Below, one piece after another: positions 37,113 to 37,160 of a DNA stretch of 64,000 bases. How positions within the stretch are numbered: the first letter of the stretch is position 1; every line of letters starts with the position of its first letter. The notes beneath the pieces were generated by a model. It had not been told where the DNA came from. It saw only the letters and a list, made by a program, of their open reading frames with translations, and did no database searches. This DNA comes from Escherichia coli. Its GTDB lineage: Bacteria > Pseudomonadota > Gammaproteobacteria > Enterobacterales > Enterobacteriaceae. A program made the translations under genes and the position numbers. Location: the NCBI RefSeq assembly GCF_036507355.1, contig NZ_AP027877.1; one strand, written 5' to 3'.

Positions 37113-37160
37113 TCAGGGGAAGGTAAAAAAGAATGCGAAGAAAAACGGTGTGTGTTTCAT
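37113..37160 (-). CDS. pheL: pheA leader peptide, 15 aa ([15 protein letters not shown])
   Basis: Minus-strand ATG 37158-37160 to TGA 37113-37115; seven Phe codons. Confidence 0.85.
   Translation of the reverse strand: [15 protein letters not shown]

Follow-up and report, generated by a model that had tools for sequence, protein, structure and literature searches.

The closest described system is the pheL-pheA attenuator of Escherichia coli K-12. In K-12 the leader gene pheL (b2598, NP_417089.1 / WP_010723158.1) lies in the order raiA - pheL - pheA - tyrA/aroF and encodes a short peptide with seven phenylalanine codons that ends in UUC_CCC_UGA. Gurvich et al. (2011, PMC3082878) assigned the pheL of E. 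coli to a conserved group of enterobacterial genes with this ending. They note that variation in pheL spares the start codon, the Phe codons and the terminal codons, and report that the wild-type level of incidental +1 frameshifting is restored once CCC_UGA is preceded by three wild-type codons. A conserved sequence, the UUC_CCC_UGA end, and pause, antiterminator and terminator structures are characteristic of this group and of the Rfam family RF01859. The leaders trpL, hisL, leuL, thrL and ilvL work on the same principle, combining a short ORF that abounds in cognate codons with mutually exclusive antiterminator and terminator hairpins, but they have other regulatory codons and unrelated sequences and do not belong to the RNA family of pheL.

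In this work we analysed a stretch of 64,000 nucleotides of E. coli DNA, called the window below, and compared its pheL locus with these systems. The window locus is a normal, intact pheL-pheA attenuator and thus an already known element. It shares with K-12 the gene order, the leader length, the seven Phe codons, the UUC_CCC_UGA end, the promoter region, the pairing segments and the terminator, and differs from it in codon 4, which is ACA (Thr) in the window and ATA (Ile) in K-12. From the CCC_UGA group it does not differ otherwise, codon 4 being one of the variable positions of the group (T/I/L/V/Q). We hold with high confidence that this is the standard enterobacterial attenuator with a majority, probably ancestral and most likely neutral Thr4, and that the Ile4 of K-12 is probably the derived state.

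The pheL gene and its neighbours

The features of the locus, in the direction of transcription, are as follows.

37605..37264, minus strand: raiA, from the ORF list, the upstream neighbour of pheL
37240..37221, minus strand: raiA terminator, from the terminator scan, ending immediately before the pheL promoter
37210..37215, minus strand: TTGACA, a -35-like hexamer in the pheL-pheA promoter region, from reading the sequence; identical in K-12
37160..37113, minus strand: pheL leader-peptide ORF, 15 aa with a UUC_CCC_UGA end, from translation and from identical DNA annotated as pheL in RefSeq
37151..37149, minus strand: codon 4 of pheL, ACA (Thr), with the variable base at 37150
37014..35854, minus strand: pheA (chorismate mutase / prephenate dehydratase), an intact 386-aa ORF, with Pfam CM_2 and PDT on the identical protein

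The initial annotation had located the leader peptide at 37113-37160 and left its strand unstated. The position is right and the gene lies on the minus strand. When the segment is read on the plus strand it gives SGEGKKECEEKRCVFH, which is no leader peptide, while its reverse complement gives PheL. The minus-strand DNA reads ATG AAA CAC ACA CCG TTT TTC TTC GCA TTC TTT TTT ACC TTC CCC TGA, which is 16 codons including the TGA stop at 37115..37113. Translation of this strand bears out the seven Phe codons that had been described, at positions 6-8, 10-12 and 14, and the end of the ORF, ACC TTC CCC TGA, is that of the enterobacterial CCC_UGA group (PMC3082878). A full-length Rfam match, 229/230 identity to K-12 and a terminator downstream show that pheL is not a chance ORF. 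In addition, the Pfam family PF28163 (PheL) is on record for the 15-aa product at the same position in a contig whose DNA is identical here.

The pheA ORF begins 98 nt past the pheL stop, on the same strand. The gene order is that of E. coli, with aroF-tyrA followed by pheA-pheL-raiA on the opposite strand. The PheA of the window differs from K-12 PheA (WP_000200120.1) by two amino acids, A26S and H248Y, where the K-12 sequence was taken from strain F2_81, which bears the same accession. The exact PheA of the window is recorded in only 9 contigs. RaiA is identical to that of F2_81 (WP_000178456.1), an accession shared with K-12.

Over the 230 bp from the -35 region through promoter, leader and attenuator to just short of the pheA start, the alignment with K-12 MG1655 shows 229/230 identical positions, and the single difference is base 37150. 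The reference record of MG1655 (NC_000913.3) has ATA at codon 4 of pheL, which agrees with the Ile that the initial annotation gave for K-12. A consensus sigma-70 scan of 36900-37400 found no promoter above threshold, and our assignment of the pheL promoter is therefore based on identity with the upstream DNA of K-12. Elsewhere in E. coli, some genomes have a P2-like prophage (integrase, Cox, HTH repressor) between raiA and pheL; its junction falls within the raiA terminator, a short distance before the pheL promoter.

The leader RNA and its alternative folds

Downstream of the promoter the RNA features on the minus strand are the following.

37161..37036, minus strand: Phe leader / attenuator RNA, Rfam RF01859 (Phe_leader), 132.2 bits against a gathering score of 55, E=1e-24, model positions 1-125 of 125
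37146..37123 with 37093..37070, minus strand: long leader helix in the MFE fold, whose 5' arm is the Phe-codon segment
37122..37117 with 37110..37105, minus strand: small hairpin inside the long leader helix, in the MFE fold
37110..37104 (GGGAGGC) with 37063..37057 (GCCUCCC), minus strand: antiterminator pairing, from constrained folds, mutually exclusive with the terminator
37066..37036, minus strand: intrinsic terminator, from the terminator scan, a 10-bp stem AAGGCCUCCC/GGGGGGCCUU at 37066..37042 followed by a U-run

The terminator region reads AAGGCCTCCC-AAATC-GGGGGGCCTT, then TTTTTT (37066..37036). Seven of the 10 bp in its stem are G-C pairs and the hairpin energy is -18.6 kcal/mol. The sequence and structural features that define a Phe_leader are found at this locus: the covariance model score, a short Phe-rich ORF, pheA downstream on the same strand, a terminator and an alternative antiterminator. 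The attenuator had been described as intact, and we confirm this, since every paired segment is identical to K-12, the Rfam match is full-length and the terminator is recovered by the scan.

We masked the 5' part of the leader RNA to mimic a stalled ribosome and refolded the remainder (MFE). With nt 1-28 to 1-40 masked, which corresponds to a stall at Phe6-10, the MFE structure contains the GGGAGGC:GCCUCCC pairing and the terminator is gone. With the mask extended to nt 46 or beyond (tested to 58), as for a ribosome that has stalled at Phe12 or Phe14 or has reached the stop codon, the terminator forms. A stall at Phe12 on an RNA that ends before the 3' terminator arm gives the antiterminator too.

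The folds are also reflected in the conservation of the leader over 24 species. The structure of the terminated state is 97.4% paired, against 41-60% in slid controls, and has three compensatory pairs. The long leader helix and the small hairpin within it are paired in 95.6% and 100% of cells, respectively, with compensatory changes at two pairs of the long helix, and the terminator is paired in 100% of cells with one compensatory pair. The core pairs of the antiterminator are invariant in these species and hence give no covariation signal.

These folds correspond to the classical attenuation switch. The leader ORF, with its 15 codons and seven Phe, would be translated behind the RNA polymerase that is transcribing the leader. 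With ample Phe-tRNA, the ribosome would run on to the UGA and cover GGGAGGC, so that the terminator could form and transcription would end short of pheA. With Phe-tRNA in short supply, it would stall in the Phe codons; GGGAGGC would then be available to GCCUCCC, which is also the 5' arm of the terminator, and polymerase would read through into pheA. We infer that the window leader controls pheA transcription in this Phe-tRNA-dependent manner in vivo, because its sequence is identical, bar one unpaired base, to the experimentally studied attenuator of K-12.

Threonine and isoleucine at codon 4

The two alleles have separate RefSeq proteins, WP_001386991.1 for Thr and WP_010723158.1 for Ile as in K-12. 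The former, annotated as 'pheA operon leader peptide PheL', is identical to the peptide of the window, so that the two do not differ at the level of the leader. Strains such as O157:H7, O111, O104:H4 and SE11 carry it. A full-text literature search for both PheL peptide strings found no paper.

To describe the frequency of the alleles we used the complete RefSeq E. coli genomes, in which the pheL locus is single-copy in 5,425 of 5,426. The haplotype queries were exact and 80 bases long, covering the ORF and 30 nt upstream, and any mismatch brings the identity below 99%. The 80-mer of the window (ACA) is found in 2,872/5,425 genomes. A second ACA haplotype, with an A-to-G change 22 nt upstream of the ATG, is found in 686/5,425, for example in MRSN346355 and Eco889, which brings the exact ACA haplotypes together to at least 3,558/5,425. 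The K-12 80-mer (ATA) accounts for 1,382/5,425 (25.5%). By subtraction 485/5,425 genomes have other haplotypes. In an evenly spaced sample of the matches to the K-12 80-mer, 44/44 rows that are not exactly K-12 carry a non-K-12 protein name, and few of these 485 genomes are therefore likely to carry Ile. Laboratory derivatives of K-12 and clinical clones are over-represented in the collection, and these counts are hence not population frequencies.

Among the strains with the exact sequence of the window are O157:H7, O111 and O100:H21, and a 131-mer is 100% identical in, for example, O157:H7 and O100:H21. O104:H4 and SE11 are one base off the K-12 80-mer and have a non-K-12 product name. Codon 4 of four fetched non-K-12 E. 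coli is ACA in three, including MSI001, which has two further substitutions, and ACG (Thr) in N96. The PheL of MSI001 (WP_216684335.1) carries F7S and T13I, leaving six Phe codons, and there is a further change just past the stop. As an impression from strain names only, these records suggest that Ile occurs in K-12-like and ETEC strains and Thr in O157, O111, O104 and SE11. Thr4 is thus the common form, and the Ile4 of K-12 is a minority allele at about 25% of complete genomes. At PheL position 4 it is K-12 that is atypical of E. coli.

For the polarity of the change we scanned outgroups with the PheL peptide, leaving codon 4 free and fixing all other residues, with one genome per species. 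The 29 loci obtained are an incomplete outgroup sample and not a census, as E. coli itself, Salmonella and Klebsiella are missing from the scan. With the other residues fixed in the pattern, the scan speaks to position 4 and cannot show that variation is confined to it. Over 22 other species position 4 is Thr, Leu, Val or Gln. The Thr codons are ACT in E. albertii, ACA in the cryptic-clade Escherichia sp. MOD1-EC7003 and in Huaxiibacter chinensis, ACC in Citrobacter amalonaticus, and ACG in Pseudenterobacter timonensis and strain RIT714. Leu is found in most Pantoea and Erwinia loci, Val in several Enterobacter and Phytobacter loci and Gln in Pantoea eucrina. Ile was seen at position 4 in 0/29 of these outgroup loci. 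It may occur in other genera, because the Rfam consensus of RF01859 at codon 4 is a weakly conserved 'aua'. Within E. coli, Thr is found on several haplotypes (ACA, the ACA haplotype with G at -22, and ACG), and the sampled Ile alleles lie on one, a single step from that of the window. Because Thr is shared by E. albertii and the cryptic-clade Escherichia, by Citrobacter amalonaticus and by three further enterobacterial genomes, these sequences argue that Thr is probably ancestral in Escherichia and the Ile of K-12 derived.

The initial annotation had regarded ACA as a strain marker, and the data speak against this. A mutation specific to the source isolate would fit the observations that the codon is exactly one base off the K-12 reference and that the lineage of the window is poorly matched among complete E. 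coli, with a best identity of 99.1% over 7.8 kb. But the same codon is found in reference pheL sequences: the exact 80-mer is shared by 2,872/5,425 genomes, the 131-mer is 100% identical in many strains, the peptide is that of WP_001386991.1 and Thr is also found in outgroup species, including outgroup Escherichia. We therefore consider a strain-specific origin of ACA highly improbable. An error of sequencing or assembly is more improbable still, to the point of being hardly credible. Single-base errors are possible in T-rich leaders, but thousands of independently determined complete genomes share this base, as do contigs with identical PheA. At most, codon 4 sets the group with K-12-type haplotypes apart from other E. 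coli; nothing about it is strain-specific. As the Ile4 of K-12 is the minority and probably the derived allele, differing from K-12 at this codon is no sign of a peculiar strain.

It might also be asked whether the two alleles differ in function. AUA is a rare codon that is read by a dedicated low-abundance tRNA, the lysidine-modified tRNA-Ile2, so that in K-12 it might slow the leading ribosome and shift the set point of the attenuator. The ensemble pairing probability of the codon-4 bases differs slightly between the alleles (0.05 vs 0.33), and the Ile allele reaches about 25% of sequenced genomes. However, the difference in the ensemble involves the 3' end of the fragment used for folding, which is arbitrary, and the ACA and AUA leaders have the same MFE structure with the same energy of -52.9 kcal/mol, in which codon 4 is unpaired. 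The codon precedes the Phe run and every segment that pairs, falling in a 5' stretch that the Rfam model leaves unpaired, and Thr, Leu, Val or Gln are tolerated there in other genera. In the classical attenuation model polymerase pauses until the ribosome arrives, and if this holds for pheL, delays in early elongation would be buffered. A functional difference of this kind is in our view very unlikely. The same slight chance attaches to its more specific form, that AUA makes K-12-type pheA attenuation weakly sensitive to the supply of tRNA-Ile2 or lysidine (TilS) or to the speed of early elongation; if this were true, the ancestral ACA allele of the window would be free of any coupling to tRNA-Ile2/TilS supply. 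Because codon 4 precedes every pairing segment and the regulatory Phe codons, sequence and predicted folds indicate instead that the difference between Thr and Ile is most likely neutral. For annotation, the locus can be treated as a pheL-pheA attenuator that is normal and functional, and the codon 4 difference has little wider significance.

Mobile elements and other features of the window

The window is collinear with E. coli, with patchy divergence, and even its closest match among 5,425 complete E. coli genomes reaches no more than 98.9-99.1% identity (18917-61895; 30000-37800). Together with the rare PheA and three IS copies, this low best identity suggests that the lineage of the window may lie outside the complete-genome collection.

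One of these copies is an IS4 element of 1,426 bp at 37853-39278, between raiA and bamD, with a transposase ORF at 37937-39265 on the plus strand that matches Pfam Nterm_IS4 and DDE_Tnp_1. It lies outside the regulatory region, with the pheL promoter about 640 bp further downstream, and K-12 MG1655 is without an insertion at this site. In K-12 coordinates the two IS4 flanks share 14 bp, a sign of a target duplication. The site is also occupied in E. coli F2_81 and in other top matches.

The other two are IS1 copies, with InsB-type DDE_Tnp_IS1 ORFs at 8557-9060 and 15903-16406, both on the plus strand. A 542-aa autotransporter ORF of the AIDA/YpjA type at 14030-15658 (plus strand) stops about 245 bp short of the second IS1 transposase ORF. 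As the equivalent ypjA CDS of F2_81 spans 4.6 kb, IS1 appears to truncate the ypjA-like ORF of the window. This IS1 copy also abuts a 279-aa serine-recombinase fragment at 16400-17239 (minus strand). Further along, the tmRNA gene ssrA (tag ANDENYALAA) at 18918-19280 adjoins a 436-aa tyrosine-integrase ORF at 17522-18832, both on the minus strand. This pair is at the usual position of ssrA-linked islands; the collinearity with F2_81 breaks there and the region to the left diverges.

A tRNA with a CAT anticodon is found at 11048-11123 on the plus strand. ARAGORN calls it tRNA-Met, and 100% identical DNA in O157:H7 and O145 is annotated as tRNA-Ile. It is a candidate for tRNA-Ile2 (ileY), which is lysidine-modified and reads AUA, codon 4 of pheL in K-12. 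Rfam searches further identified three tandem copies of naRNA4 (REP-type) at 1780-2037 (minus strand), the sRNA RyfD at 41907-42045 (plus strand), upstream of clpB, and a complete rrn operon with tRNA-Glu and StyR-44 at 45043-50051 (plus strand).
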